Shown: in pieces, positions 36,526 through 61,944 of the stretch | Numbering within the stretch: the first letter of the stretch is position 1 | Layout of the letters: each line of letters opens with the position of its first letter | Source of the DNA: Nannocystis bainbridge | GTDB taxonomy: Bacteria > Myxococcota_A > Polyangia > Nannocystales > Nannocystaceae | NCBI RefSeq assembly: GCF_028368995.1 | Contig: NZ_JAQNDL010000002.1 | Location: forward strand, 481,724 to 545,723 | DNA length: 64,000 nt | Direction of reading: 5' to 3' | Program-made: the position numbers and the translations under genes | Notes under the pieces: model-generated | What the model was told of the DNA's origin: nothing | Seen by the model: the letters and a program-made list of their open reading frames with translations, nothing else | The model's database searches: none

Positions 36526-36817
36526 GGCCCACGCGCGCGGCCGCGCGTACTCGCGGGGCCGACCGCCGGCGCTGTCCGGGGGCCGCAGACGACCACGCAA
36601 GACCATGCCCGGCCGAGGATGCCGGAGGCGCCCCGGGTTGTCGAGGCGACGTCGACGCGCGCCAGGCCCAGGGAGCGCCGGTCCCAGGGTCGCAGGGAGT
36701 GGGCGCAGGCATCACGGGCGCGAGGCTGGGAGGCGCGAGGGCGCGGGCGTCACCCGCGGGGCGGATGCAGGACAGAGGGATCGGGCATCACCGGCGCGAG
36801 GAGCGTGGACGCGGGCA

Positions 36818-37983
36818 TCACATGCGCGGGGCCGGGACGCGCAGGACGAAGGTCGAGCCGCGCCCGGGGGCGCTGGTGACTTCGATGTCGCCGCCGAGCA
36901 GGCGGGCGAACCGATGGGCCAGCGCGAGGCTGACGCCGCTGCCTTCGTGGGAGCGCGTGGGCCCGTCGTCGAGCGGCTGGAAGGCGACGAACAGGCGCGG
37001 CAGGTCGGCGGCCGCGATGCCGACGCCGGTGTCGGCGACCCGCAGCTCGAGCCACGGGAGGTCGTGCACGGCGATCGCGGCGAGGCGGACCTCGACGCGG
37101 CCGCGGTCGGTGAAGCGGACCGCGTTGTCGACGAGGGTGTGCACACAGTGGGCGAGCATCGCGGGATCGGTCAGGCAGACGAAGGCCGTCGGCAAGGGCG
37201 CGAGCGTGAGCGCGTCGCCGCGCGCGCGGGCCTCGAGCTCGCAGTGGGCCACGGCCTCGCGCACCAGCGTTGCGACGTCGACGGGGACGCGCGCGGGCTG
37301 GACGACGTCGGCCTCGACGCGCGACAGCTCGAGGATATGCGTCAGCGTGCGGACCAGGCGCGCGGCGGCCCGCCGGATTCGCTCGGTGTCGCCGTCGATC
37401 GCCGCCAGGTCGCCCTCGGCCGCCGACTCGCGGATCAGCTCGGCGTAGCCGACCACGGCGTTGAGCGGGGTCCGCAGCTCGTGGCTCATGTTGAGAAGGA
37501 AGCGGGTCTTGAGCCGATCGGCGCGCACGGCCGCGTCGCGGGCGCGGGCCAGGTCCTCGTAGAGGCGGGCGTTGTCGATCGAGGTGGCGATCTGGGCGGC
37601 GAGGTGGCGCAGCAGCGCGAGCCGGCCGCTGCCGAAGGTGTGCGGGGCGAGGTCGTTGTCGAGGTAGAGGACGCCGAGCAGCTCGCCGTGGCCGAGGATC
37701 GGCGCGCACAGGACCGAGCGCACGCCGGCCAATGCGGGGTCGCCGGCGAAGTCGTGGTCGACGGCGACGTCGCCGAGGACGACGTCGCGGCGGGTGCGAG
37801 CGACGAAGTGGACCAGCGACTGCGGTAGACCTGGCTCTTCGGACATGGCCCGAGATTGCAAGACGTCGAGCCGCTCGCGGGCGACGTCGGCGGCGGCGGC
37901 GATCTGCAGGCCGCCGTCGCCGTTCAGCAGGACGAAGCAGCGGCGGGCGCCGGCGACCTCGAGCACGGTGCGGACGAGCGCGC

Positions 37984-37990
<7 letters not shown>
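36818..37990 (-). CDS. GAF-histidine kinase (HisKA+HATPase_c) module; C-terminal fragment of the frameshifted giant kinase gene
   Basis: GAF-like 'CAPILGHGELLGVLYLDN'. H-box 'NMSHELRTPLNAV'. G-boxes 'DTGVGI', 'GSGVSLAL'. Frame differs by 1 from the upstream fragment. Confidence 0.6.
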
Positions 37991-41861
<3,871 letters not shown>

Positions 41862-42149
41862 GTGGGGCCCAGTGTGCCTTGCCGCGCGGGCGACAGACAC
41901 TGCGACGTGAGGGCTCGCTTCCGCGCCGACGCTGCGGCGGCGCGAGCGACCTCCGGCGGCGCCGCCCCGGTCGCCTCGCAGCGCCGATGCGGCGCCCGGG
42001 GTCGGGCGCGGGCGGCGGGATCACGGGCGCGTCGTGAGGCTCGTCGCGCGGCGCCGCCGTCGGTGACGTCGTGGCGCGCGAGCCGGCGATCTCTGTGCGG
42101 CGACTGGACCTCGCGTCCGGCGGGGCGGAGCGCTGCTGTCCCGGGGAGC

Positions 42150-44674: not shown

Positions 44675-45527
44675 ATATCGCGCGAGCCGGTGCGGCGATT
44701 CGAGCGCAGCCCGTGCGATTCGCAAATCACACAGGTGCGGACTTCCACGAGTGTTTGGCGTGACCCTGTCGCCCGCTCATGCGCAATCGCATGAGGACCG
44801 ACCTGGCCCGCGAAACCCCGCGTAGAGCCCTTGCGCCGCCTCCGGAGCCGCTGGTGCGTGAACGCCCGTAGGCGCCCACGCTAGCGTGAACTCGAACTGG
44901 AGCGCCCGAATCCGCTGACGGATCGAGGACTCCGGGTCCGGTCGGTGCGACGAGGCAACATACGGACGATGTATCATGGGGTCGCCGGGGCGTCAAGCGA
45001 CCTTCGCATAATTCGACGATGAATGATGCGAGCGACAATGCGAGGGGAGGCGGCACGCACTGCGATGATTGACGGCCCGCCGCGGGCGCGCGGACAGGGG
45101 CCGCACGGGCGCGCACGATCGAGCGCATGGCGGCGAGGGCCGGGCGCGTCGTCGAGTTCGTCCGTGCCTCCACGCGCCACGCGCCGGAGATTCTCGTCGT
45201 CGGGCGTGACGGCAGACGCCTGCGTCCCCGCAGGTCAGCGCCGATCTACCCAGGGCGCGGGCGTTGACGCCGCCGGGGCCGGTGAGGTACGCATGGGGCC
45301 GCATGGCAGTCCACGGCGGCGGATCGCCCGGGCCCAAGGCGGGCGAACGCGCCGGCGGCGTGGCGGGCCGCCGCGACATGGGCCTTGAGGCGACCGTCGA
45401 CTCCGACACCGTCGACGGCCCGAGCGCGGGCATGACCGGCGGCCCCTCGACCGGCCGGGCGCGGATGCCCGCGCACCTCGACTCGACGTCGTCACAGGAC
45501 GCGTCGAGCGTGTTCGACGCGCGGTCG

Positions 45528-48500
45528 ATGCCGATGAACATCGGCCGCCACGAGCTGGTGCGGCCGCTCGGGATGGGCGGCATGGGCCAGGTGTTCGAGG
45601 CGCGCGCGCCCGACGGCACCACGGTGGCGCTGAAGATCATTCGCGGCACCAGCCCCGAGCGGCTCTACCGGTTCAAGCGGGAGTTTCGCTCGCTGTCGGC
45701 GGTGGTCCACCCGAACATCGTCGCGCTCTACGACCTCGTCCACGTCGACGACGGCGGCGGCCAGGGCCTGGCGTTCTTCACGATGGAGCTGCTGCGTGGG
45801 GCCCACTTCGTGTCCGCGGTGCGCGACGAGCTGGCCGAGGGCGCGCTCGACGAGCCGGCGCTGCGACGATTGCAGGACGCGATGGTCGGCCTGGCGTGCG
45901 GGCTGTCGTGCGTGCATCGCCATGGCCTGGTCCACCGCGACATCAAGCCGTCGAACGTGATGATCACGCCGACCGGCCGCGTGGTGGTGCTCGACCTCGG
46001 CCTCGTGCGCGAGAGCCGGGTCGCCTCGTTCGACAGCGTCGGCGAGAACCACGCGCTGCTCGGGACGCCGCTCTACATGGCGCCGGAGCAGGTGATCCGC
46101 TCCGACGACGCCGGCCCGGCCGCCGACTGGTACGCCGCCGGCGAGGTGCTGTGGGAGTGCCTGCACGGCGAGTCGCGCCACGCCGGGCGCACGCTGGTCG
46201 AGGTGTTCGAGCGCAAGCTGATGGAGCCGCCGACGCTGCCGCGGCGCGCCGGCGTGCCGCCGCACCTGGCGCAGCTGTGCCTCGACCTGCTGGCGCGCGA
46301 GCCCGCGGCGCGGCCGAGCGCCGGCGACGTGCTGGTGCGGCTCGGTCGCGGCGATCTGGTTGCGATCGAGCTCACGGTCCAGGGGCTGCTCGGGCGCGAG
46401 CACGAGGCCCGGCTGCTGCGCGATCAACTGGCGCAGACCGGCCGCACCAACGCGGTGTTCGTCAGCGGGCCGTCGGGCTTCGGCAAGACCACGCTGGTCG
46501 AGCACGTGCTCGACGTGGCCCGCCGCGAGGACGCGGTGGTCGCGTTCACCGGCAGCTGCTCGGAGCGCGAGTCGATCCCGTTCAAGGCGCTCGACTCGGC
46601 GATCGACGCGCTCAGCCTCTACCTCTGCAACACCGACGCCGACGCGACCGCGATCGCCCGCCCCGACGATCTGGCGGCGCTGGCCCGCCTGTTCCCGATC
46701 TTGCGCACGGTGCCGGCGATCCGCGATCTCGACGACGCGTGGCTCGAGGGCTGCGATCCGATCGAGATCCGCCGCCGCGCCGCCGATTCGCTGGCCGCAT
46801 TGTTGACGCGGATCGCCACGCGCCGGCCGGTGGTGCTGGCGCTCGACGACCTGCAGTGGGCCGACCTCGACAGCGTGCTGCTGCTCGAGTCGATCCTGCT
46901 GCGCAAGCACCCGCCGCCGATCACGCTGCTCGGCAGCCACCGCGAGGGCACCGAGACCACGCGCGCGCCGCTGTCACACCTGTGGAAGGCGCTCGAGGCG
47001 GCCGAGTTCATCGGCCTGCGCCGGGTATTGGTCGGGCCGCTGTCGGACGAGCAGTCGCTGGCTCTGGCCGCACGCCTGCTCGGCGGGCCGGTCGACGATC
47101 CGGTGGCCGCGCGGATCGCCCGCGAGGCCGGTGGCAGCCCGTTCTTCATCGGCGAGCTGGTCCGCCACGCGCTCGCCCACGGCGGCCTCGACGAGGCCGG
47201 CCTCAGCCTCGACAGCCTGCTGCGCGCGCACCTGCAGCGGCTGCCGCCGTCGGCCAAGCGGCTGGTCGAGGTGCTCGCGGTCGCCGGCGGTCGGCTGCCG
47301 CGCACGCTCGCGGTCGACATCGTCGCCGCCGCGGCCGGCCCGGTCGATCGCGGCACGCTGGCCCGCCTGCGCGCCGAGCATTTGATCCGCATCGCCGACG
47401 CGTCGCAGGACGACGTGCTCGAGACCTACCACGATCGCGTGCGCGAGGCCGCGGCGCAGGAGGCCGCCGAGTCGCAGGGCTCCGAGCTGGCGGCGATCCA
47501 CCTGGCGATCGGCGAGGCGCTGCTGAGCAGCGGCGCGGCCGACACGGCCACCCTGGCGCACCACTTCCGCGCCGCCAACGACACCGAGCGCGCGACGCAA
47601 TTCACCCTCGCGGCCGCGCTGGAGGCCGCCCGCGCGCTGGCCTTCGATCAGGCGGCCGAGCTGTTCCGGGCCGCGCTGTCGATCGGGGGCATCGACGCCG
47701 CCACGGCCACGCACACGCGCGCGCACCTGGCCGAAGCGCTGGCCAACGCCGGGCGCCTGCACGCCGCGGCGCGCGTCTACACCGACGCCGCCCACGCCGA
47801 CGACACCTCCGCCAGCGAGGCCCAGCGGACCGAGTGGTTGCGCCTGGCGACCGCGCATTTCCTCTCGACGGGGCACCACGACGAGGGCCGCGCGGTGCTC
47901 GAGGAATTGCTGCCGCGCGTCGGCCTGTCGCTGCCGCGCGGGACCGCCTCGACGATCGTCGCGCTGCTCGGCCAGCGGGCGCTGCTCGCCACCCGCAAGC
48001 TGGTGCTGCCGCCGCCCGGCGGTCCGCGCCTGTCGGAGCGCGACGCCCAGCGCCTCGACGTCTGCTGGACGGCCACGCGCGGCCTGCTCTACAGCGACGG
48101 CATCAGCTCGACGCTGTTCCACGCCCGCCACTTGCGGCTGGCGCTGGCGAGCGGCGATCCGCTGCGGGCCGCGCGGGCGATCGGCTACGAGGCCTACCTG
48201 CGGGCCTTGATGGAGGGCGGGGCCGCCGACGCGGCCGCGACCGCGATCTTCGACAGCCTCGAGGCCTCGGCGCCGATCCAGGCCAGCCCGTACGTGCTGG
48301 GAATGCTGGCACAGTACCGGGCGGGCGCGCATCAGATGCTGTGTCGATTCGAGCCGGCGATGGCCTCGTACGAGCGCGGCATCGCCATCCTGCGCGAGCA
48401 GTGCACCGGCGTGATGGACGAGATCGCGCAGATGGACGCGCATCGCATGATGGTCCTGCTGTACCTCGGCCGGATCGGCGAGCTCGGCGACGTCGCGTTC

Positions 48501-49199
48501 CGGCTGCTGCGCGAGTGCGCCGAGCGGCCCAACCCGTACGTCGAGGGCTTCGCTCGCGGCGTGCTCGGCAACCACGTCCACCTCGCGCAAGATCAGGCCG
48601 ACGCCGCTCACGAGCAGCTCGAGCTGTACCGTCGCAACGCACCCAAGAAATTCGAGGCGCATTTCTTCAACTGCGCGTCGAAGCAGACCGAGCTGCTGCG
48701 CTACCGCGGCCTGGCCGAGGAGGCGTGGCGGCAGAACCAGGCCGACTCGGCGATCGTCGAGAAGTTCCCGTTCTTCCGCGTGCCGTACGTGAAGGCCGAG
48801 TTCTACCGCTCGCGCGCCGCCAATGCGCTGGCCCTGGCCGCGCGCTCGCGGGACCCGGAGCCGCTGCTGAAGATCGCCCGCGCGGCCGCCAAGCAGTGCT
48901 TCCGCGTGCCGCTGCCGATGGCGGACGCCTACGGCCACCTCACGCTCGCCAGCGTCGCCGCGCTCGAGGGCAAGCTCGAGCTCGCGGCCACCGAGCTGCG
49001 CCGCACCGTCGCCGTGTTCGAGCGCCTGAACATGGCCAGCGACCTCGCGGCGTGCCGGCGCCGGCTGGCGGCGCTGCTCGGCGGCGACGAGGGTCGCGCC
49101 CAGCAGCAGGCCGCCGACGCCTGGATGGCCGAGCAGCAGATCCTGCGCCCCGATCGCTTCACCGACATGATCGCGCCGGGCTTCGACCGGCACACCTAG
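45528..49199 (+). CDS. Ser/Thr protein kinase - AAA/STAND NTPase - TPR multidomain signalling protein (an upstream in-frame start at 45378 is possible)
   Basis: Kinase 'GMGGMGQVFEA', 'VALKII', 'HRDIKPSNVMI', 'DLGL', 'APEQ'. Walker A 'GPSGFGKTTLV'. Long TPR-like C-terminus. GC3 stays high upstream to about 45378. Confidence 0.75.
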   Translation: MPMNIGRHELVRPLGMGGMGQVFEARAPDGTTVALKIIRGTSPERLYRFKREFRSLSAVVHPNIVALYDLVHVDDGGGQGLAFFTMELLRGAHFVSAVRDELAEGALDEPALRRLQDAMVGLACGLSCVHRHGLVHRDIKPSNVMITPTGRVVVLDLGLVRESRVASFDSVGENHALLGTPLYMAPEQVIRSDDAGPAADWYAAGEVLWECLHGESRHAGRTLVEVFERKLMEPPTLPRRAGVPPHLAQLCLDLLAREPAARPSAGDVLVRLGRGDLVAIELTVQGLLGREHEARLLRDQLAQTGRTNAVFVSGPSGFGKTTLVEHVLDVARREDAVVAFTGSCSERESIPFKALDSAIDALSLYLCNTDADATAIARPDDLAALARLFPILRTVPAIRDLDDAWLEGCDPIEIRRRAADSLAALLTRIATRRPVVLALDDLQWADLDSVLLLESILLRKHPPPITLLGSHREGTETTRAPLSHLWKALEAAEFIGLRRVLVGPLSDEQSLALAARLLGGPVDDPVAARIAREAGGSPFFIGELVRHALAHGGLDEAGLSLDSLLRAHLQRLPPSAKRLVEVLAVAGGRLPRTLAVDIVAAAAGPVDRGTLARLRAEHLIRIADASQDDVLETYHDRVREAAAQEAAESQGSELAAIHLAIGEALLSSGAADTATLAHHFRAANDTERATQFTLAAALEAARALAFDQAAELFRAALSIGGIDAATATHTRAHLAEALANAGRLHAAARVYTDAAHADDTSASEAQRTEWLRLATAHFLSTGHHDEGRAVLEELLPRVGLSLPRGTASTIVALLGQRALLATRKLVLPPPGGPRLSERDAQRLDVCWTATRGLLYSDGISSTLFHARHLRLALASGDPLRAARAIGYEAYLRALMEGGAADAAATAIFDSLEASAPIQASPYVLGMLAQYRAGAHQMLCRFEPAMASYERGIAILREQCTGVMDEIAQMDAHRMMVLLYLGRIGELGDVAFRLLRECAERPNPYVEGFARGVLGNHVHLAQDQADAAHEQLELYRRNAPKKFEAHFFNCASKQTELLRYRGLAEEAWRQNQADSAIVEKFPFFRVPYVKAEFYRSRAANALALAARSRDPEPLLKIARAAAKQCFRVPLPMADAYGHLTLASVAALEGKLELAATELRRTVAVFERLNMASDLAACRRRLAALLGGDEGRAQQQAADAWMAEQQILRPDRFTDMIAPGFDRHT

Positions 49200-49225
49200 A
49201 CCCCACCACAATCAGGAGCTGTGCG

Positions 49226-52200
49226 ATGCAGGACCTCTCGCGTGCGCGTGAACTAGCCATTGCGCTTTCTCGAAACTCGGGCGGCACCGACGCCCACGCG
49301 CGGGCCGCCGCCCTCAGCGGCGAGCTGGCCTCGCTCTTCAATCACCCGACGGGCGCCCCGGGCACGCTGAGCGGCTATCAGGCCGAGGGCACCCTCGACG
49401 CGCGCGTCGCGGTGCTCGTATTGCCGGCGGCGACGGTGCGGCGATTGTTGCCCGCGGGGCTCGAGCTGGCGCCGCAGCCGGTCGTGCCGGCCGAGTATCA
49501 CCCGGTCTATCTGTTCTTCTCGCACGAGAACTTCCCCGCGTGGTTCGGCACCATGGATTACCATGAGCTGCTGATCGGCGTGCCGTGGGTGCAGATCGCG
49601 GATCCGAAGGCCACCTATCCCGGCCCGTTCGTCTACATGCCGCGGCTCTATCTCAATGAGCTGGCCCCGTGCGAGCTCGGCGTGCACATGTATGGGTGGG
49701 AGAAGCAGATGGGCACGCTCGACGTCGTCGGCGACGGCGCCCCGACGGTGCGGTTCACCGTCACGCCGAAGGACGGCAGCTCGCCGGCGGCGATCGGCGA
49801 GTTCACCGAGATCCCGGGCGTGGGCCCGAAGTCGTCGGCCGACTTCAAGAACTTCCTCATCGTCCGCCAATTGTTCGAGCAGCCGACCATCTCGCAGGCG
49901 CTGCACATCGTCGATCGCAACTCCTTCGACTCGAAGATCGCCGGCCCGTTTTTGGCCGCCAACAACACCCTCGAGGCCGACAAGGCGGGCGCGACGATCC
50001 AGCCGCTGGCGGCGACGATCACGATCGGCGCCTCGTTGACGCCGCCGGGCATCCCGCCGGGCACCTACCACGTGCCGAGCCTGCTCGACGCGGAGCTGGG
50101 CGCGTTCAGGATCCGCTGCCCGCAGGCCATCTCGCTGCCCGGCTCGTGCGCCGACGCCAGCTATCCGCGGCCGCCGGCCGCCCGCAAGCTCAGGGTCGCG
50201 GTGTTCGGCGGCGGGCCCTCGGCCTGCGTCGCCGCGCTGTACCTCGCGCGCCAGACCGATCGCTACCAGGTCACGCTCTACACCACCGGCTATCGCCTCG
50301 GCGGCAAGTGCCAGTCGTGGCGCAACCCGGACAAGGCCTGGCGGGTCGAGGAGCACGGCCTGCACGCGTTCCTCGGCTTCTATCACAACGCCTTCACGGC
50401 GGTGCAGGACGCCTATCACGACGGCTTCGCCAGCCCCGAGGTCGGCGAGGCGCTGTACCAGAACGCCTTCTACGCCGAGCACCACAACGGCCTGATGGTG
50501 CATCACCGCGGTGAATGGTCGTACTGTCCGCTGCCGAGCCCCTCGGCGGTGGCGCCGACGCCTTCGCCGACGGCCTCGTCGACCGGCGGGCACGCGCTGC
50601 TGATGGCCGTCGAGGCGCTGGCGCGGCGGGCCCTCGAACATTTCTCGGCGATGGCCGACGCGCACGCCGGCCTCGCCGACGGCATGGACGCGCACGCCTC
50701 GGTGCTGCAGCGGCTGCGCAGCGCGATCGTCGGGCTGGTCGTGCGCGCCGCGGAGGACATCTACGAGGCCGACCTCGGCGGCATCGACGACTTCATCGCC
50801 GCCGAGGTCGAGAAGGTGCGCGACAACCTCGCCAATCGGGTCCGCGCCACGCCTTCGCTGCCGACGTACCTGTGGTTCTTGTGGACCGGCGCCGACACGA
50901 TGCTGACGATCGCCGTCGGCCTGCTCAAGAACCCGGTGAAGAACCTGTCGGAGCTCGACGGCTCGGACTTCCGCGACTGGCTCAAGGCCAACGGCCTGCA
51001 CGAGGCCGCCGGCGAGTCGTGGGCCGTCATCGATCAGGTCTACGAGACCCTGTTCTCGCACCAGGACGCCGACCCGGCCAAGGACGCCTGCAAGCTGCTC
51101 GACACCGCCGTGCGCCCGGCCAACCTGGCCGCCGGCGTGGCCACGCGGTGGTTCTTGCTCGAGAGCCTCGGCTACCGCGGCGCGCCGGCCTACCGCTTCG
51201 AGTACAGCTGCGCGCAGACGATGATGACCCCGTACTACCTGGCGCTGCAGCGCCTGGGCGCCGAGGTCCGGTTCTTCCACACCGTCACCGGCCTCGAGCT
51301 CGCAGGCAGCGGCGAGCAGCGCGAGCTGGTGCGCGTGCACCTGCAGCGACAGGCCGAGGTCAAGGGAGGGCCCGCGGCGTATCAGCCGCTCGTCATCCCC
51401 GACCTCGCCAACAACCCGCCCGAGCTCCACGACTGGCCGCTCGATCCGGACTGGTCGCAGCTCGTCGACGGCGACTGGTACCGCGAGCACAACATCGACT
51501 TCTATGATTCGTGGCAGGCCGGTCGCAACACCCGGGCCACGCCGGTCCAGCTCGAGCGCGGCGAGGGGTTCGACCTGTGCGTGCTCGGGGTCCCGCTCGG
51601 CGCGTTGCCGCTGATCGACTCGCCGCTGACCCGGCCCACGCGGTCCGACGCCGATCCGGCGTGGAAGCGGATGATCGACGGCATCGCCGTGACGCAGACG
51701 ATGTCGTTCCAGCTGTGGCTCAAGCCCAACGCGGGGGCGCTGATCGCCGGGGCGCCGCGCGGCCTCCTTACCTGCTTCGCCCAGCCCGAGCCGAGCTACG
51801 GCGATTTTACGCCGCTCATCGCCCACGAGGAGTGGCAGGCCCCGGGGCCGCACCTGCTCTCGTACTTCACCGGGGCCTCGGTGGCCGGCAAGCCGCCGCT
51901 GCCGCCCGAGTGCGGGCCCGAATATCCGCGGCGGATCCAGGCGCAATGGGTCGCCAAGGTCACGCAGTGGCTCGGCGATCATTACGCCGAGTTCTATGAC
52001 GGCAGCAGCACGCCGGACAGCTTCGGCGGGTTCCTCGACGATCTCGTGGTCGAGGGTGAGCCGCTCATCGGCGCCGCGCGGCTCGAGTGGCAGCATTTGA
52101 TCGCCGACGTCGAGCCTTCGAACCTGTACGTCCTGAGCCAGCCGGGCTCGATCGGGCTGCGCCTCGGCCAGGCCGAGTCGGGCGTCAAGGGCCTGCTGCT

Positions 52201-52324
52201 GTGCGGCGACTGGACGCGCACCGATCTCAACTGCGGCTGCGTCGAGGCAGCGACCGCCTCGGGCATGCTGGCCGCGCGGGCGATCAGCAACGAGCCGCGC
52301 ACCGTATGGCGGCCAGGCTTCTGA
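49226..52324 (+). CDS. Fusion protein: N-terminal acetoacetate-decarboxylase-like (ADC-fold) domain plus phytoene-desaturase/amine-oxidase-like FAD oxidoreductase with a large internal insertion
   Basis: AGGAG RBS 7 nt upstream. ADC-like 'LLPAGLELAPQPVVPAEYHPVYLFFSHENF...YHELLIGVPWV'. FAD dinucleotide-binding motif 'VAVFGGGPSACVAALYLA...YRLGGK', 'EHGLHAFLGFYHN'. C-terminal 'LLLCGDWTRTDLNCGCVEAATASGMLAA' (amine-oxidase/CrtI/HpnE signature). Confidence 0.6.
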   Translation: MQDLSRARELAIALSRNSGGTDAHARAAALSGELASLFNHPTGAPGTLSGYQAEGTLDARVAVLVLPAATVRRLLPAGLELAPQPVVPAEYHPVYLFFSHENFPAWFGTMDYHELLIGVPWVQIADPKATYPGPFVYMPRLYLNELAPCELGVHMYGWEKQMGTLDVVGDGAPTVRFTVTPKDGSSPAAIGEFTEIPGVGPKSSADFKNFLIVRQLFEQPTISQALHIVDRNSFDSKIAGPFLAANNTLEADKAGATIQPLAATITIGASLTPPGIPPGTYHVPSLLDAELGAFRIRCPQAISLPGSCADASYPRPPAARKLRVAVFGGGPSACVAALYLARQTDRYQVTLYTTGYRLGGKCQSWRNPDKAWRVEEHGLHAFLGFYHNAFTAVQDAYHDGFASPEVGEALYQNAFYAEHHNGLMVHHRGEWSYCPLPSPSAVAPTPSPTASSTGGHALLMAVEALARRALEHFSAMADAHAGLADGMDAHASVLQRLRSAIVGLVVRAAEDIYEADLGGIDDFIAAEVEKVRDNLANRVRATPSLPTYLWFLWTGADTMLTIAVGLLKNPVKNLSELDGSDFRDWLKANGLHEAAGESWAVIDQVYETLFSHQDADPAKDACKLLDTAVRPANLAAGVATRWFLLESLGYRGAPAYRFEYSCAQTMMTPYYLALQRLGAEVRFFHTVTGLELAGSGEQRELVRVHLQRQAEVKGGPAAYQPLVIPDLANNPPELHDWPLDPDWSQLVDGDWYREHNIDFYDSWQAGRNTRATPVQLERGEGFDLCVLGVPLGALPLIDSPLTRPTRSDADPAWKRMIDGIAVTQTMSFQLWLKPNAGALIAGAPRGLLTCFAQPEPSYGDFTPLIAHEEWQAPGPHLLSYFTGASVAGKPPLPPECGPEYPRRIQAQWVAKVTQWLGDHYAEFYDGSSTPDSFGGFLDDLVVEGEPLIGAARLEWQHLIADVEPSNLYVLSQPGSIGLRLGQAESGVKGLLLCGDWTRTDLNCGCVEAATASGMLAARAISNEPRTVWRPGF

Positions 52325-52347
52325 GCCATCCAAAGGGAGGAAATGCC

Positions 52348-54348
52348 ATGACCGACGATCGCACCGGCAACGACATCGACCTCGCGCCCGCGGCCGCCGC
52401 CTCGCGCGACACGACCCAGAGCAACTGGTCGGAGACGATCAGCTTCACGCCCGCGACGGCCGCGTCGCCGCGCTGCCTCGTGGAGCTGCGCGAGCTCGTG
52501 CGAGCGGCCCACGCCGCGCGCAAGCAGGTGCGCGCGCGCGGCAGCGGCCACTCGTGGAACCCGGCGATCGTGACCGCCGATACCTCGGTGAACACCAGCC
52601 TGCTGGCCCCCAACGACGAGCACGTGTGCGGCGGGTCGGGGACCGGCAATTGCCTCGAGATCTTTCATTCGACGGTGACCGGCGCCGACGGTCGCACGTA
52701 TCGGCGGATCAGCGTGCCCGCCGGCATGTGCCAGGGCGATTTCGCAAGGTTGGCGCAGCAGCTCGGCGCGCCGCTGCCGACCCAGGGTCCGGCGCCCGAC
52801 ATCACCCTCAGCGGCTTCGTGGCCAACGGCTGCCACGGCACCGGCTGGTCCGAGCCGACCATCGCCGAGCTGGTCTACGGCCTCGACGTGGTGGGGCCTG
52901 ACGGCAGCGTGCTCAGCTTCACCGCCGATTCGAGCCCGCCGGGGTTCGAGGCGCTGGGGCTCGATCCGGCCGCGCTGATGAACGTCGTGCGCGTGAACCA
53001 GGGCGCGCTCGGGGTGCTGGCGCGCATCGTGTTCCAGCTGCCGGCCGAGCCGTTCAACCTGCGCGTCTCGAACGCGTTCGTGCCGGTGACCGACGTGTTC
53101 GACCGCGCCGATCCATCCAAGCTGCAGCGCCTGATCGAGGGCCACGATTACGTCGAGATTTTTTGGTTCCCCTACAATAATTATACGATGAAGGGGCTCA
53201 CCCCGGTGCCCGCGGGGCCGGAGCAGGACACGCTGTGGGTGATGATGCTCGACCGCACGAGCGAGCCGGTCAGCGGCGACGCGACCTTCGTCGATCTGTG
53301 GAACGACGCATTCGGGGTGTTGGCCCTGGCCGGTGGGGCGATCGGCCCCGTCATCGATCGCCTGCCGCGGGTGGTGCCGGCGATGTCGAACTTCGCGCTG
53401 CACACGATGAAGTGGAAGAACCACTTCAGCGACCCGGTCGTGCTGAGCCCGCCCGACGCGTTCCTGTATCAGAAACACTACTTCCGCAGCTTCCTCGACC
53501 TCGAGTTCACGCTGCCGATGGACGGGGCGCAGGGCTTCGCCGACGTGGTTGCGGCGTTCTATCAGTTGGTCGATCGCATGGAGGCGTGGCGCAGCGGCAG
53601 CGAGGGCGACGCCGAGTACCCGATCAACCTCAACGCCCACGCGCGGTTCGTCCGCAACAGCCAGGCGACGCTGTCGCCCGCGTTCGCGCCGGCCGGCTCG
53701 TCGCAGCACACCTGCTACTTCGAGTACCTCAGCTACTCGCACGGCGATCTGACCGACCACTACCTGGCGTTCAACCGCGAGTTCTACAAGCCGGCGCACG
53801 GGCTCGGCTGGAAGAAGTGGGGCGGCCTGCCCAATTGGGGCAAGTACCTGGGGAGCGTGCCGGGCATCGACGAATACGTGCACACGATCCTGGCGGCGAA
53901 GACCGGGGCGGAGCCGAGCCGACTCGAGCAGTTCCTGGCGGTGCGCGACCGCATCGATCCGGACGGGGCGACGTTCACCAACGATTACCTGCGCGGCTTC
54001 TTCAGCGGGCAGGCGGTGGCCGGCGAGACGCGGCTGCGCGGGGCGCCTGCGGGGCGCTTTTTGGCCATGCCGGCCGTGCCGCCGCGCCGGGCGTTCCCGC
54101 TGGCCAACGTCGAACACGCGACGCCGACGCGGCCGATGCAGGCGGAGAGCATGGAGCTCTATCACGACCTGGCGGCCGGGGCGGCGTTCCTGCTCAACGA
54201 GCACGGCGAGGTCAACCTGCTGGCGCTCGAGCACGATCCTTCGACGGGGCTGCTGCACTACGTGCCGGCGTCGCCGTCGCAGCACCTGGGCTTCGAGGAG
54301 ATCCTCGACCGGGTGGCGCGGTTCCATGCGCCGCTGCGGGCGGTGTGA
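52348..54348 (+). CDS. FAD-linked oxidase of the PCMH-type / D-arabinono-1,4-lactone (gulonolactone) oxidase family
   Basis: GGAGGA RBS. 'RARGSGHSWNP' (covalent-FAD GxGHS motif). ALO-type C-terminal domain. 666 aa. Confidence 0.65.
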   Translation: MTDDRTGNDIDLAPAAAASRDTTQSNWSETISFTPATAASPRCLVELRELVRAAHAARKQVRARGSGHSWNPAIVTADTSVNTSLLAPNDEHVCGGSGTGNCLEIFHSTVTGADGRTYRRISVPAGMCQGDFARLAQQLGAPLPTQGPAPDITLSGFVANGCHGTGWSEPTIAELVYGLDVVGPDGSVLSFTADSSPPGFEALGLDPAALMNVVRVNQGALGVLARIVFQLPAEPFNLRVSNAFVPVTDVFDRADPSKLQRLIEGHDYVEIFWFPYNNYTMKGLTPVPAGPEQDTLWVMMLDRTSEPVSGDATFVDLWNDAFGVLALAGGAIGPVIDRLPRVVPAMSNFALHTMKWKNHFSDPVVLSPPDAFLYQKHYFRSFLDLEFTLPMDGAQGFADVVAAFYQLVDRMEAWRSGSEGDAEYPINLNAHARFVRNSQATLSPAFAPAGSSQHTCYFEYLSYSHGDLTDHYLAFNREFYKPAHGLGWKKWGGLPNWGKYLGSVPGIDEYVHTILAAKTGAEPSRLEQFLAVRDRIDPDGATFTNDYLRGFFSGQAVAGETRLRGAPAGRFLAMPAVPPRRAFPLANVEHATPTRPMQAESMELYHDLAAGAAFLLNEHGEVNLLALEHDPSTGLLHYVPASPSQHLGFEEILDRVARFHAPLRAV

Positions 54349-54965: not shown

Positions 54966-56201
54966 ATGATGACGGCTCTCCTGCGCGAGCGAGCGCGCGC
55001 GCGAGGCCGAAGGAGCGACATCGTGAGCGTGTCCGTCAACCCTCCCAAGACGCCGGTGACCGCGGGCAGCAGCGGCGTGGCCGCCGCGACGGTGCCGAAC
55101 GTGTGCAAGATGCCCGGGCCGCCGGCGCCGTTCGTGCCGACGCCGCTGCCCAACATCGGCAAGAGCGGCGACTCGCCGAAGGGTTATTCGCAGCAGGTCC
55201 GGATCGCCGGCAAGAAGGTGGCGATCAAGGGCGCGAGCTTCGGCTCGACCGGCGACATGGCGAGCAAGGCGACCGGCGGCGGGATCGTGTCGAACAACAC
55301 GCACGGGCCGACGAAGTTCGTCGGGCCCGGATCGATGGACGTCAAGATCGAGGGCAAGAACGTGCAGCTGCTGAGCGACCCGATGCTCAACAACTGCGGA
55401 CCGAGCGGGACGCCCGCGAACGCGGCGACGCTGCTCGGGGTGATCCAAACCAGCGGGATGGTGACAGCGGTGGAAGCCGGGCCGTGCCCGATCTGCGAGA
55501 AGAGCCACGGAGAGCTGAGCGAGTCGCCGCAGACGAAGCTCGACGCAGGGGGGCTGGCTGCGAGATTCGAGGCGGAGGTCCGGCCGATCATCGACGAGGT
55601 GGAGGCGCGAGGCCCGGACGACAAGCTGCCCGTGAGCACGATGCTCGGAATCGTGGCGTGCAAATGCGGGAAGAAATACGCGGACCAGTCGGCGGCGACG
55701 ACCATCGAGTTCTGCAAGGCAGCCGAGGGGATGAAGCACCCGGCGGACGTGACGCTGTCGTATCGCCACGGAAGGCCGGTGCTCGACAGGGCCTATCTGG
55801 AGTCTCTCAAGACGGTGCGGGAGCGGATCGGCGCGCACCTCGGGAACTCGCCGCTCTTTCGCGAGACCTGGGAGGATGCCAGTCAGCGCGCTGCAGAGAG
55901 TGACAGGCAGCGGTCGGGGCCAGCCGCTTACCCGCCCGGCACTTGCGCAGCGCAGAAGACGCTCCTGTTGCTGATGGACGACGGCGCCCTGGCGGCGGCG
56001 ATGACGGAGAAGTGGTACAGCAGCAGGAAGAGCAAGACGCAGGCGCCGATCCGGTATGTGGATGCTCGCGGCGGCGCGCGTATGGAGGTCGTCGCAAAGT
56101 TCAAGCACGGCGACACGGTGCCGCCCTGCGGGGCATGCGAGCTGCTCGTGCCGTTGCTGCTCTGCGCGGGAGGTAAGGCGGAATGCGAACACAAGAGCTA
56201 G
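54966..56201 (+). CDS. Polymorphic toxin: N-terminal PAAR-like DUF4150 domain (T6SS-effector type) plus Cys/His-rich C-terminal putative toxin domain
   Basis: 'VSVNPPKTPVTAGSSGVAAATVPNVCKMPGPPAPFVPTPLPNIG...GSTGDMASKATGGGIVSNNTHGPTKFVGPGSMDVKIEGKNVQLLSDPMLNNCG' matches the DUF4150/PAAR-like architecture. C-terminus has 'CPICEKSHGE' and 'PPCGACELL' zinc-ligand-like motifs. Confidence 0.65.
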   Translation: MMTALLRERARARGRRSDIVSVSVNPPKTPVTAGSSGVAAATVPNVCKMPGPPAPFVPTPLPNIGKSGDSPKGYSQQVRIAGKKVAIKGASFGSTGDMASKATGGGIVSNNTHGPTKFVGPGSMDVKIEGKNVQLLSDPMLNNCGPSGTPANAATLLGVIQTSGMVTAVEAGPCPICEKSHGELSESPQTKLDAGGLAARFEAEVRPIIDEVEARGPDDKLPVSTMLGIVACKCGKKYADQSAATTIEFCKAAEGMKHPADVTLSYRHGRPVLDRAYLESLKTVRERIGAHLGNSPLFRETWEDASQRAAESDRQRSGPAAYPPGTCAAQKTLLLLMDDGALAAAMTEKWYSSRKSKTQAPIRYVDARGGARMEVVAKFKHGDTVPPCGACELLVPLLLCAGGKAECEHKS

Positions 56202-56938
56202 AGCCGGAGATGGAAGCGCTGTACCGCAGCCTCGTGCCTGACTTCGAAGCGCAGGTGGTCGGGGCGACGGAAGGCGAGGTGGAACATATCGAGGCGCTCG
56301 CCGGTCGGCCCTTGCCGCGGTTCTATCGCTGGTTCTTGCTGCGCATGGGAGGCCATATGGGCCCCTTCGAGTATCCGACGATCGACTTCACGGCCAAGGC
56401 GGTGCTCGCTGCCTATTCCAAACGGCTTGTTCATCCGGATTCGCGGTTCCTGATGATTGGCCATGAGGGGGACGAGATGATGCCCCTGCACGTGTTCTAC
56501 GATCTCGATTGCCTTGCACGGGACGATGCTCGCGTGACCAAGAACCACGTGCTCGGCGGCGAATTTCACCATCAGTTCGAGACCCTGCGAGAGATGTTCG
56601 CGTGGGGAAATGTCCTGGCGCTGCACGTCGAGGAGCTCGGGCAACGTTGCGTCGGCAACTTCTATGATCCCGAAGGCGATGTCCTGGCGCGCCTCGTGCC
56701 CGTCCTGACCAACCTCGGCTTCGCCAGCCCGATTGCGACCGGCTCGCATTGCGGCTTGTTTCGCGGACCGCGAGGGGCCGTGGTGACTCGCGCCACTCCC
56801 GGTCTCGAGACCGATATTCACACGTTTCGCATGGGCGCCGCCGATGCGGGCGGCCTGCGCCGGATCCTGGGCGCGATCGCTTGCGAGACGGCCCTGAAGG
56901 TCAACGTGAGAGAATGGTTCCCTCCGCTTGCGCCATAG
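56183..56938 (+). CDS. SUKH (SMI1/KNR4)-family putative immunity protein (true start may be the ATG at 56210)
   Basis: 'VEHIEALAGRPLPRFYRWFLLRMGG' resembles the SUKH N-terminal motif. Gene overlaps the 3' end of the toxin gene, as in toxin-immunity pairs. Confidence 0.5.
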   Translation: MRTQELEPEMEALYRSLVPDFEAQVVGATEGEVEHIEALAGRPLPRFYRWFLLRMGGHMGPFEYPTIDFTAKAVLAAYSKRLVHPDSRFLMIGHEGDEMMPLHVFYDLDCLARDDARVTKNHVLGGEFHHQFETLREMFAWGNVLALHVEELGQRCVGNFYDPEGDVLARLVPVLTNLGFASPIATGSHCGLFRGPRGAVVTRATPGLETDIHTFRMGAADAGGLRRILGAIACETALKVNVREWFPPLAP

Positions 56939-60309: not shown

Positions 60310-61671
60310 TCACGCAGGATCGGTGACGCGGCCGTAGAACAGCAGCACGCCGCTCCGCACGTCGCGGATGTAGAACAGGAACGGGCGGTCGACCAGGAAC
60401 GGGGTCGGGCTGGTCGGTGCGCCGCCCACGGCGATCTCGATCGCGCTGGGCGGCGAGCCGTCGGCGCCGCGCTCCTCGACGGTGAGGCGCGCCCGGTGGT
60501 GCACGGCTTCGAGCGCCAGCTTCTTCTCGCTGGCCATCGCGTCGAGCTCCGCGCGGCGGGCGTCGAACACCCGCGCGGCCCCGAGCTTGGCGACCACCGG
60601 GGCCAGGTCGAGGGTGCTGTCGAGGCTGAAGCGCGGCATTTGGAGGTCGATCGGGGCCGGCTTGGCGGCGTCGATCCAGCCCTGCAGCCGCTCGTAGTCG
60701 AAGCCCTTCTCGACGTCCTCGAGGCCGCCGCGGGTCGAGGGCAGGAGGATGATCATGCTGTACTCGCCGCCCCGGTACGGCAGCTCGAGCAAGCGCAGCT
60801 TGCCGGCCAGGCCCAAAGTGGTGGAGAGGCGCTGGACGCTGCGCATCATCGGCACCGGCTCCTTGCGTTGGTGGCCGTAGAACAGCACCGGCTCGGTCGC
60901 CTTCGGGTCGAAGGGCTCGAGCCAGTCGGCCTTGAAGGCGGCGACGTCGGTGACGAGCAGGCGGGTGGCGGCGGTCAGGGCCTCGGGGCTGAGGATCTGG
61001 TCGATCGCGGCGTCGGTCTCCTCGCGGGCCCAGCCGTTGATGTGATCGCGCGCGCCGACGAGGTCGCCGGCGAAGTCGAGCGTGCCGAGCGGCGATGCGA
61101 AGACCTTGCGGGTGAGGTCGAGGTACTCGGGCTTGAAGTCGTGGCTGCGATCGCCGAACACCCGGCTGGCGGTGACGAGGCTGACGTGAGCGCTGGGGTG
61201 ATTCCAGCGAGCGGCGAGGTGGGCCAGGGCGGTGTGGACATCGCCGGTCAGGCCGTCGAGGTGGAGGACGTCGGCCAGTTCGCGCTCGGTGGCCCCGCTG
61301 GCGCCGGCGTGCAACATCGCCAGGGCGACCGAGACGCTCATGCCCGAGAAGAGCAGGTTGCCGGGCTGCTTGGCGAGCTTGCGCTGGAGGTCGATGGTGA
61401 GCTCGTTGATGCTGCGACCGAGAGCCTGCTTGAGCTCGGCGTTGTGGCCCTTGACGACCGGCGCAGGCGCGGGCTTGACCGGCTCGGAGGGCGGGGCCTC
61501 GGCGGCGAGCACGGTCCTGTCGGCGGCCGGCGTGGGGGTCGGCGGCGCGGTGGGGATGGCGGCCGGGGCGGCGACGGTGGCGAGCGGGGCGGGCTCCGAG
61601 GGCGCCGCCGTGGTGTCGCAAGCGACCAGGGCGACGCAGACGAACAAGAGGCGGGGGTCTCGCTGCGACAT
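60310..61671 (-). CDS. Serpin (serine protease inhibitor) family lipoprotein
   Basis: C-terminal serpin signature 'FLVDRPFLFYIRDVRSGVLLFYGRVTDP'. Hinge/reactive-centre-loop region 'GADGSPPSAIEIAVGGAP'. 'LLFVCVALVACD' lipobox. Confidence 0.75.
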   Translation of the reverse strand: MSQRDPRLLFVCVALVACDTTAAPSEPAPLATVAAPAAIPTAPPTPTPAADRTVLAAEAPPSEPVKPAPAPVVKGHNAELKQALGRSINELTIDLQRKLAKQPGNLLFSGMSVSVALAMLHAGASGATERELADVLHLDGLTGDVHTALAHLAARWNHPSAHVSLVTASRVFGDRSHDFKPEYLDLTRKVFASPLGTLDFAGDLVGARDHINGWAREETDAAIDQILSPEALTAATRLLVTDVAAFKADWLEPFDPKATEPVLFYGHQRKEPVPMMRSVQRLSTTLGLAGKLRLLELPYRGGEYSMIILLPSTRGGLEDVEKGFDYERLQGWIDAAKPAPIDLQMPRFSLDSTLDLAPVVAKLGAARVFDARRAELDAMASEKKLALEAVHHRARLTVEERGADGSPPSAIEIAVGGAPTSPTPFLVDRPFLFYIRDVRSGVLLFYGRVTDPA

Positions 61672-61944
61672 GAAGAAGGATGGTGCCGCAAGTCGCCGCG
61701 CACGAGCGCGCCTGCGAGGGGCTGTCGCCTGGCAGGACGGCGACGGGGGGCTGCGCGCCCAGGCGCGGGCGACAGGGCGCCAGGTCACCGGACTCAGCCG
61801 CGCGCGGCCATCGTGCGTGGGGGCGTGCAGCCTCGAAGGTCGCGATTGCGCGTGCGGCCGCCGGGCCTTTTAAACGGCCGATCGGGGCCGATCCGGGTGA
61901 TCGCGCCGTGAGGACCTCGGCGTGGGATCATGGCTTTTTGGACA

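Follow-up and report, generated by a model that had tools for sequence, protein, structure and literature searches.

A 64,000-nt stretch of the Nannocystis bainbridge genome (contig NZ_JAQNDL010000002.1; the window, in what follows) carries at 49226–52324, on the plus strand, a gene for a protein of 1032 amino acids (aa) that joins an acetoacetate decarboxylase (ADC)-like domain to a flavoprotein oxidase resembling phytoene desaturase (PDS). The frame is free of internal stops, a ribosome-binding site (AGGAG, 49214–49218, +) can be read from the sequence 7 nt 5′ of the ATG, and the product is 100% identical to WP_272087664.1/MDC0719153.1, entered for N. bainbridge as 'NAD(P)-binding protein'. 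The neighbouring gene on the 5′ side (45264–49199, +) encodes up to 1311 aa with a Ser/Thr kinase domain (Pkinase, 120 bits), a STAND ATPase domain (AAA_16, 79 bits) and a helical C-terminal region; it is on the same strand and its stop lies 26 nt 5′ of the fusion gene. The product from its first in-frame start (TTG, 45264) is not in the protein collection, so the annotated start of this STAND gene is probably located further downstream.

A sequence-only reading of the window had described the gene as a fusion of an ADC-fold domain to a CrtI/HpnE-type flavoprotein and had considered that a stop or frameshift between two genes might have gone undetected. We found the fusion to be genuine, as indicated by the domain matches detailed below, the identical RefSeq protein and about 87 clusters of homologues (1010–1090 aa, 35–87% identity) from independent Myxococcota/Nannocystales assemblies, which are colinear with it over 95–100% of their length. 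The existence of these full-length colinear clusters shows that two genes were not merged by a sequencing error. Moreover, the codon-position GC content of the gene (0.68/0.49/0.94) is even across the domain junction and matches that of the flanking genes, and AlphaFold modelled the protein as a single chain with a predicted local distance difference test (pLDDT) value of 92.3 and a predicted template modelling (pTM) score of 0.94. Frame, homologues, coding statistics and model all agree and thus refute an annotation or assembly artefact in which two adjacent genes were merged through a missed stop or frameshift; we give this explanation practically no chance. The two model scores also imply a fixed arrangement of the two domains relative to each other, i.e. 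that the ADC-like and flavoprotein parts are rigidly associated in the predicted structure.

The relatives bear generic names in public annotations, either 'FAD-dependent oxidoreductase' or 'NAD(P)-binding protein'. JGI calls them 'NAD-binding domain and iron-sulfur cluster', a label taken from the COG; we rejected an iron-sulfur cluster, the sole invariant cysteine being C1005.

Identity of the two fused domains

The ADC-like domain comprises residues ~46–318 (49361–50179, +) and has the beta-cone (double-barrel) fold of the ADC family. With the single fusion protein as query, Pfam ADC (PF06314) matched residues 64–179 at 23.0 bits (E 6.4e-5; gathering score 29.8), and a search of solved structures returned N-terminal Rossmann matches only. 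A profile of the fused N-domains alone gave a marginal ADC match to solved structures (E 1.9). Precomputed PF06314 matches are, however, present on many close homologues of the fusion, and an unfused ADC-like partner in locus L024 scores 40.7 bits. A profile built from 17 diverse partner domains, which span 15–57% identity to the window protein and include both subtypes described below, matched Sbi00515 (E 2.4e-7) and the ADC of Chromobacterium violaceum (E 2e-5). In this alignment the only invariant lysine of the family, K160 (codon 49703–49705, +; motif YGWEK), falls on the catalytic GFPK lysine of Sbi00515 and ADC, and the nearly invariant E114 (codon 49565–49567, +; motif 'Y.E') falls on the Y-x-E glutamate of ADC-family structures, a residue we take to be equivalent to Glu76 of ADC. 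Both a predicted Schiff-base lysine and an active-site glutamate are thus found at the catalytic positions. Among 71 fused homologues, conservation is 93% for K160, 93% for E114, 97% for E159, 99% for R140 and 100% for H92.

The partner-domain profile therefore supports the ADC-fold assignment that had been made for residues 1–330, a point on which the sequence-only reading had seen a possible refutation, even though the single-sequence Pfam score stays below the cut-off. The suggestion that this domain forms a Schiff base is compatible with a conserved lysine that aligns with the GFPK lysine. Identity as a true acetoacetate decarboxylase (EC 4.1.1.4) was rejected: the motif reads YGWEKQ, with Glu in place of Pro and no second lysine (E-K-Q, not P-K-K). 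From members of the ADC-like superfamily such as Sbi00515, Swit_4259, MppR and the clostridial and Chromobacterium acetoacetate decarboxylases the fusion differs in its motif (YGWEK, not GFPKK); its ADC-like domain is, in addition, joined to a flavoprotein and preceded by a 45-residue N-terminal helical extension. Sbi00515 and Swit_4259 are pyruvate aldolase-dehydratases, and MppR is an enzyme of the enduracididine pathway.

The remainder of the protein has both FAD motifs and the two-domain fold of the amine oxidase/PDS family (PF01593 with PF13450). A dinucleotide-binding beta-alpha-beta unit at residues 322–391 (50189–50398, +) contains the motifs GGGPSA, RLGGK and RVEEHGLHAFLGFYHN, which are invariant in 82 homologues and align with rice PDS; Pfam NAD_binding_8 covers residues 326–391 of it with 39.9 bits. 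The C-terminal FAD-binding motif LLLCGDWT...GCVEAATASGMLAA (residues 982–1020; 52169–52285, +) also aligns with PDS and forms the last of two stretches matched by Pfam Amino_oxidase (36 bits; cut-off 19.8). The GxGxxA...GGK and C-terminal GDWT...EAA..SG motifs that had been read from the letters are accordingly present. Profile alignment to PDS gave three anchors, namely query residues 305–378, 596–705 and 988–1025 against PDS residues 11–80, 165–267 and 433–469, respectively. Compared with PDS, the oxidase carries ~130 additional residues between the first two anchors and ~115 more scattered over residues 705–988.

Most of the first surplus forms a helical insertion at residues 447–570 (50564–50935, +), which has no counterpart between PDS residues 80 and 165. 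The model shows four helices (450–479, 481–510, 522–540 and 547–568) preceded by a low-confidence linker. This is the least conserved segment of the protein (22% identity in fused and 13% in unfused homologues), but it is kept in all fused and unfused homologues with 86–99% coverage, and the extra sequence likewise occurs in unfused oxidase homologues of ~670–790 aa. Judged from these comparisons, the ~125-aa insertion is a trait of a large group of oxidases and not a peculiarity of the window gene. The sequence-only reading had envisaged one non-homologous block of ~350 residues (500–850). Most of that block proved to be substrate-binding domain, residues 596–705 aligning with PDS 165–267; what stands is an insertion as such, of four helices and ~125 aa, that is neither ~350 aa long nor specific to this gene.

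By sequence and fold, the nearest characterised families of the oxidase are PDS, ZDS and HpnE. It differs from them in sharing only 14–17% identity, in having ~250–280 extra residues including the helical insertion, and in its genetic context, which comprises an ADC-like partner, adjacent or fused, and STAND neighbours but no nearby carotenoid or hopanoid genes. None of the NCBIfam equivalog models reached its cut-off (HpnE 45.3 versus 283, PDS 21.6 versus 569, ZDS 20.8 versus 622), and these sub-threshold matches were N-terminal, covering only the first ~70 residues. We rejected identity as PDS, ZDS or HpnE because of these scores and the extra residues. Amine oxidases of the MAO, PAO and LSD1 type keep a lysine that is water-bridged to flavin N5. 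Across the 82 homologues, K361 (GGK motif) is the sole invariant lysine of the oxidase part, which suggests, at the level of sequence, that an equivalent of the N5 lysine is absent. As far as sequence comparison goes, the enzyme is nearer to carotene desaturases than to amine oxidases; the earlier class label thus holds in its CrtI/PDS/HpnE-type part, 'amine oxidase' being the name of the Pfam family.

Pairing of ADC-like and oxidase genes and their STAND neighbours

The following counts of pairing and neighbours refer to 86 oxidase loci, in which stop-to-stop open reading frames (ORFs) were searched with in-house profile hidden Markov models (HMMs), including models for both ADC subtypes; the 80 genome loci were the best matches to the window protein and do not sample the family at random. 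In 57 of the 86 loci, a search limited to 3 kb detected an ADC-like gene or domain, mostly at a distance of 100 bp or less. The same fusion, which the sequence-only reading had proposed looking for in other genomes, occurs in the order ADC–oxidase in the ~87 clusters of Nannocystales, and at least two other domain orders exist. The order oxidase–ADC is found in Rhodobacterales (L035, L051, L074 and L140; ~970–1020 aa) as well as in proteins P0089 and P0097, and ADC–oxidase–ADC in P0088 (1300 aa; L007, 8001–11903), which is directly followed by a cyclase-AAA_16 gene and whose C-terminal ADC-like copy is, to judge by its sequence, probably degenerate. The two parts are also encoded side by side by unfused genes. 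That they have been joined repeatedly and in more than one order, and that their adjacency is conserved, is strong genomic evidence of a classical kind that the ADC-like and oxidase parts act together.

Oxidase-only homologues from outside Myxococcota (P0090–P0099) share 27–32% identity with the window protein, and on their contigs the gene order is cyclase-AAA_16 (~1370 aa), oxidase paralogue, ADC-family gene (~315 aa), oxidase. In a scan of one genome per species, relatives of the oxidase were present in at least 589 genomes; the carriers include Pseudomonas, Leptospira interrogans, Nostoc, Microcoleus, Synechococcus, Janthinobacterium, Chitinophaga, Azospirillum, Acidobacteriota, Chloroflexota and uncultured lineages. 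The alphaproteobacterial loci L001 and L003 have the arrangement oxidase–ADC–oxidase. Two or three tandem paralogous genes for long oxidases were seen in L045, L047 and L055 (Acidobacteriaceae) and in L052, L088, L016 and L065.

On the ADC side, an exhaustive profile search recovered 863 representatives of the subtype present in the window, most of them stand-alone proteins of 240–330 aa; it was used instead of a word-indexed search with the N-domain profile, which had returned 10 proteins. When neighbouring ORFs were clustered, another ADC-like subtype emerged that is more canonical and has the motif GREvyGfPK; it directly adjoins the oxidase in several organisms, among them Nostoc, Leptospira, Chitinophaga and Pirellula. 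The oxidase thus pairs with two divergent subtypes (a and b), a further difference from the known superfamily enzymes. Metagenome loci found with an ADC-side pattern almost always have an oxidase adjacent; they were retrieved with a 13-sequence alignment, a 46-sequence one being too diverse. The neighbour group 'Cluster 1' was discarded as a single-linkage artefact of generic histidine-kinase and receiver domains. The window thus has, in fused form, an ADC-like domain beside a ~700-aa oxidase with the helical insertion, and sequence comparison identifies it as one form of a widespread, uncharacterised bacterial ADC-like/oxidase gene pair.

The third component of this arrangement, a STAND gene that combines AAA_16 with a kinase or cyclase domain and lies no more than a few kilobases away, is likewise present in the window. 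The order STAND gene, then fusion gene, is found in all Nannocystales loci. A STAND gene lies within 5 kb in 61 of the 86 loci, and 41 have both a STAND and an ADC-like gene. A separate count of large STAND ORFs placed them within 1 kb in 38 of 86 loci and 3–10 kb away in 9 of the 60 detected, a distribution that argues against chance proximity. The domains attached to the ATPase vary between lineages: the STAND neighbour is Pkinase-AAA_16 in Acidobacteriota, Pkinase-AAA_16-GAF-HisKA-HATPase in Nostoc, the Nostoc architecture plus receiver and Hpt domains in Pseudomonas, Pkinase-AAA_16-GAF-SpoIIE (PP2C output) in L. interrogans, Pkinase-AAA_16-TPR_CHK1-GAF-cyclase in Chitinophagales and cyclase-AAA_16 in Alphaproteobacteria and on a Mycobacterium plasmid. 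A conserved NTPase core with swappable outputs looks like a sensory protein, at least in its domain composition. In Qingshengfaniella alkalisoli, the plasmid locus L140 (NZ_CP042263.1, 7980–14694) consists of an oxidase–ADC fusion, a cyclase-AAA_16 STAND gene and a Crp/Fnr regulator; a Crp/Fnr-family regulator also follows the cyclase-STAND gene in L051, and in L074 a Crp-like gene is located just upstream instead. Fusion, cyclase-STAND protein and Crp/Fnr regulator of Rhodobacterales would make up a putative complete signalling cascade. We take the upstream partner to resemble PknK-type kinases of M. tuberculosis and mycobacterial cyclase-AAA-TPR proteins in domain architecture; we know of no ADC-like/oxidase pair that works with these proteins or with fungal class-X histidine kinases such as C. 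albicans Chk1p.

A known anti-phage system is unsupported: PADLOC returned nothing for the fusion gene or for the ALO-like gene downstream of it (see below) and generic kinase-domain matches only for the upstream gene.

Some loci contain additional genes. In 16 loci the oxidase is accompanied by a short-chain polyprenyl diphosphate synthase, for which NCBIfam gave IdsA and geranylgeranyl diphosphate synthase as the best matches. These extended loci, among them those of Nitrospiraceae, Synechococcus and Aphanothece, have the order oxidase, 236–316-aa protein, polyprenyl diphosphate synthase, ADC-containing protein, saccharopine-dehydrogenase-like reductase. The 236–316-aa protein had no Pfam or NCBIfam match; the ADC-containing protein measures 650–1200 aa, with an ADC-like N-terminus and a long uncharacterised remainder. 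This variant is exemplified by L050 (12123–19929) and also present in L033, L043, L053, L056, L063, L067, L068, L082, L084, L089, L107, L109, L111, L125, L131 and L139, often with a STAND gene 3–5 kb away. On the Mycobacterium plasmid, a polyprenyl synthetase and a saccharopine-dehydrogenase-like gene accompany the cyclase-STAND gene and the oxidase. In Azospirillum brasilense L138 (plasmid NZ_CP059451.1, 6609–19896), one strand carries eutBC (ethanolamine ammonia-lyase), an oxidase and a FadL-type outer-membrane transporter, and the other an ADC family protein and a second oxidase, followed by an 'AAA family ATPase'.

Other genes in the window

The gene 3′ of the fusion (52345–54348, +; 667 aa) starts 20 nt after its stop and has Pfam FAD_binding_4 and D-arabinono-1,4-lactone oxidase (ALO)-type domains with a C-terminal extension of ~100 aa. 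The two genes are probably co-transcribed. Among the related loci, an ALO-type gene is found downstream only in Nannocystis sp. RBIL2 (L010) and is absent from L005. We set it aside as a component of the module since its conservation extends no further than the closest Nannocystis relative, and its membership is doubtful. An unrelated FAD_binding_4 gene lies upstream of the ADC–oxidase–ADC gene in L007.

Further 3′ on this strand, a gene for a protein with a PAAR-like toxin domain (PF13665; 54861–56201, +) overlaps a 251-aa ORF (56183–56938, +) for which Pfam gave no match; the two may form a toxin-immunity pair. A full-length serpin (PF00079, 287 bits) is encoded at 60310–61788 on the minus strand.

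A second kinase-AAA_16 STAND gene (36753–41900, −; 1716 aa), with Pfam matches to Pkinase, AAA_16 and nSTAND1, is separated by 3.3 kb from the module's own kinase-STAND gene and is oriented away from it. With phmmer, its product matched the Nostoc STAND partner at 362 bits and the Pseudomonas partner at 320 bits, which places it in the subtype found alongside oxidase genes in cyanobacteria (Nostoc) and Pseudomonas. The window contains no second oxidase or ADC-like gene.

Possible functions of the enzyme pair and its sensor

The comparisons above show the identities of the domains, the retained catalytic residues, the repeated pairing and the conserved STAND neighbour with interchangeable outputs; what kind of substrate is used, which step comes first and any part in signalling are inferences in the following proposal. 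We tentatively favour a bifunctional enzyme that would perform two steps on one small hydrophobic carbonyl molecule, probably isoprenoid-derived, and that is tied to the STAND kinase. The flavoprotein, with its complete PDS-like FAD fold, would oxidize or desaturate the hydrophobic substrate, and the ADC-like domain would act on a carbonyl of the same molecule through a lysine iminium at K160, in an aldol-type condensation or cleavage, a dehydration or a decarboxylation. Sbi00515 and Swit_4259 suggest by analogy an aldol condensation with, or cleavage of, a keto acid; MppR and ADC suggest dehydration, cyclization or decarboxylation. In the lankacidin amine oxidase/cyclase LkcE, both steps take place in one domain of ~440 aa, whereas in the fusion a separate ADC-fold domain would provide the iminium chemistry. 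The enzyme would be co-transcribed with the STAND Ser/Thr kinase and functionally tied to it, and the compound made or removed would be a signal, or the precursor of a signal, for this kinase. The substrate is probably lipophilic and isoprenoid-derived rather than a simple amine, given the kinship with PDS, ZDS and HpnE, the polyprenyl synthase and FadL-type neighbours, and the lack of invariant lysines in the oxidase part other than that of GGK.

Several observations weigh against this proposal. About one-third of the oxidase loci have no ADC-like gene within 3 kb and ~30% have no STAND gene within 5 kb, and the sampling of best matches with in-house HMMs on stop-to-stop ORFs may itself affect such counts. 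Kinase genes are abundant in myxobacterial genomes, so that adjacency at a single locus means little, and STAND proteins encoded beside enzyme genes can be plain pathway regulators. The single-sequence Pfam score of the ADC-like domain is below the cut-off; ~7% of the fused homologues replace K160 (e.g. YGWEE in P0084 and YGFER in P0077), and the second ADC copy of P0088 lacks the lysine (GYGQDA). As the window locus has no polyprenyl synthase, an isoprenoid substrate is for now a matter of inference. Finally, we found no characterised member of the family, nor any substrate, product or activity assigned to one. This agrees with the earlier remark that no characterised enzyme has this architecture: NCBIfam gave sub-threshold matches only and the literature nothing relevant.

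These points leave room for other functions. The pair could be a tailoring enzyme of a terpenoid-type specialized-metabolite pathway, with the STAND protein as a pathway-specific regulator only and a product that is no signal. Large ATP-binding regulators are known from antibiotic gene clusters, tandem oxidase paralogues are common, and a subset of loci indeed looks biosynthetic, combining the 236–316-aa protein, the polyprenyl diphosphate synthase, the ADC-like protein and the saccharopine-dehydrogenase-like/SDR gene. However, Nannocystis and most loci have the enzyme pair and a STAND gene only, with no scaffold-forming enzyme, and the varied outputs on the AAA_16 core and the Crp/Fnr regulators of Rhodobacterales look sensory rather than like a cluster-situated activator; we therefore consider a tailoring role rather unlikely, though worth keeping in mind. 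A catabolic or detoxifying amine oxidase-decarboxylase, which would convert an amine or amino acid (e.g. a beta-amino acid) to a keto acid that is then decarboxylated or cyclized, is close to the idea of the sequence-only reading. It seems improbable to us, since carotene desaturases and HpnE match it best in sequence and structure, the sequences of the oxidase part have no invariant lysine except that of GGK, genes of amino-acid metabolism or transport are not conserved nearby, and polyprenyl synthase and FadL-type neighbours suggest lipophilic substrates. Equally improbable in our view is a non-catalytic ADC-like domain that would bind or dock a hydrophobic ligand and feed the flavoprotein or contact the STAND protein. 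Such a role would fit the low Pfam score, the E-K instead of P-K-K motif and the absence of the lysine from some homologues and from the second P0088 copy, but the lysine is invariant in the 17 very divergent partners, and in the fused forms K160 is conserved together with E114, R140 and H92, as in an active site.

The two-step enzyme tied to a STAND kinase thus remains our preferred proposal, and the adjacent sensor with its swappable outputs suggests a small-molecule signalling or regulatory circuit. A bolder version, which we offer as speculation and deem unlikely, is that the ADC-like/flavoprotein pair serves as dedicated input enzyme for an unrecognized, very widespread class of cytoplasmic STAND signalling systems and makes or consumes a carbonyl compound derived from isoprenoids. 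On sensing this compound, the AAA_16-TPR(-GAF) protein would respond with the phosphorylation of proteins, with a phosphorelay or with a cyclic nucleotide. In other phyla, where the STAND partner extends into TPR_CHK1-like repeats, GAF and a histidine kinase, PP2C phosphatase or cyclase, it has Ser/Thr-kinase and GAF domains in common with Chk1-type sensors. Chk1p of Candida albicans has Ser/Thr-kinase and GAF domains and an unknown stimulus, and chk1 mutants fail to respond to farnesol (PMC8274445). If the speculation were true, the same logic might explain the stimulus of the homologous fungal Chk1/Mak-type sensors, which we regard as a lead only.

Both domain families are well known, but their partnership is new to the databases and literature searched: neither it nor its link to STAND proteins is described in Pfam, NCBIfam, PADLOC, the PDB or the searchable literature. 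Once the compound is identified, hundreds of proteins annotated as 'NAD(P)-binding protein' or 'acetoacetate decarboxylase family protein' would gain a function, and the orphan STAND kinases, a large class, would gain a stimulus.

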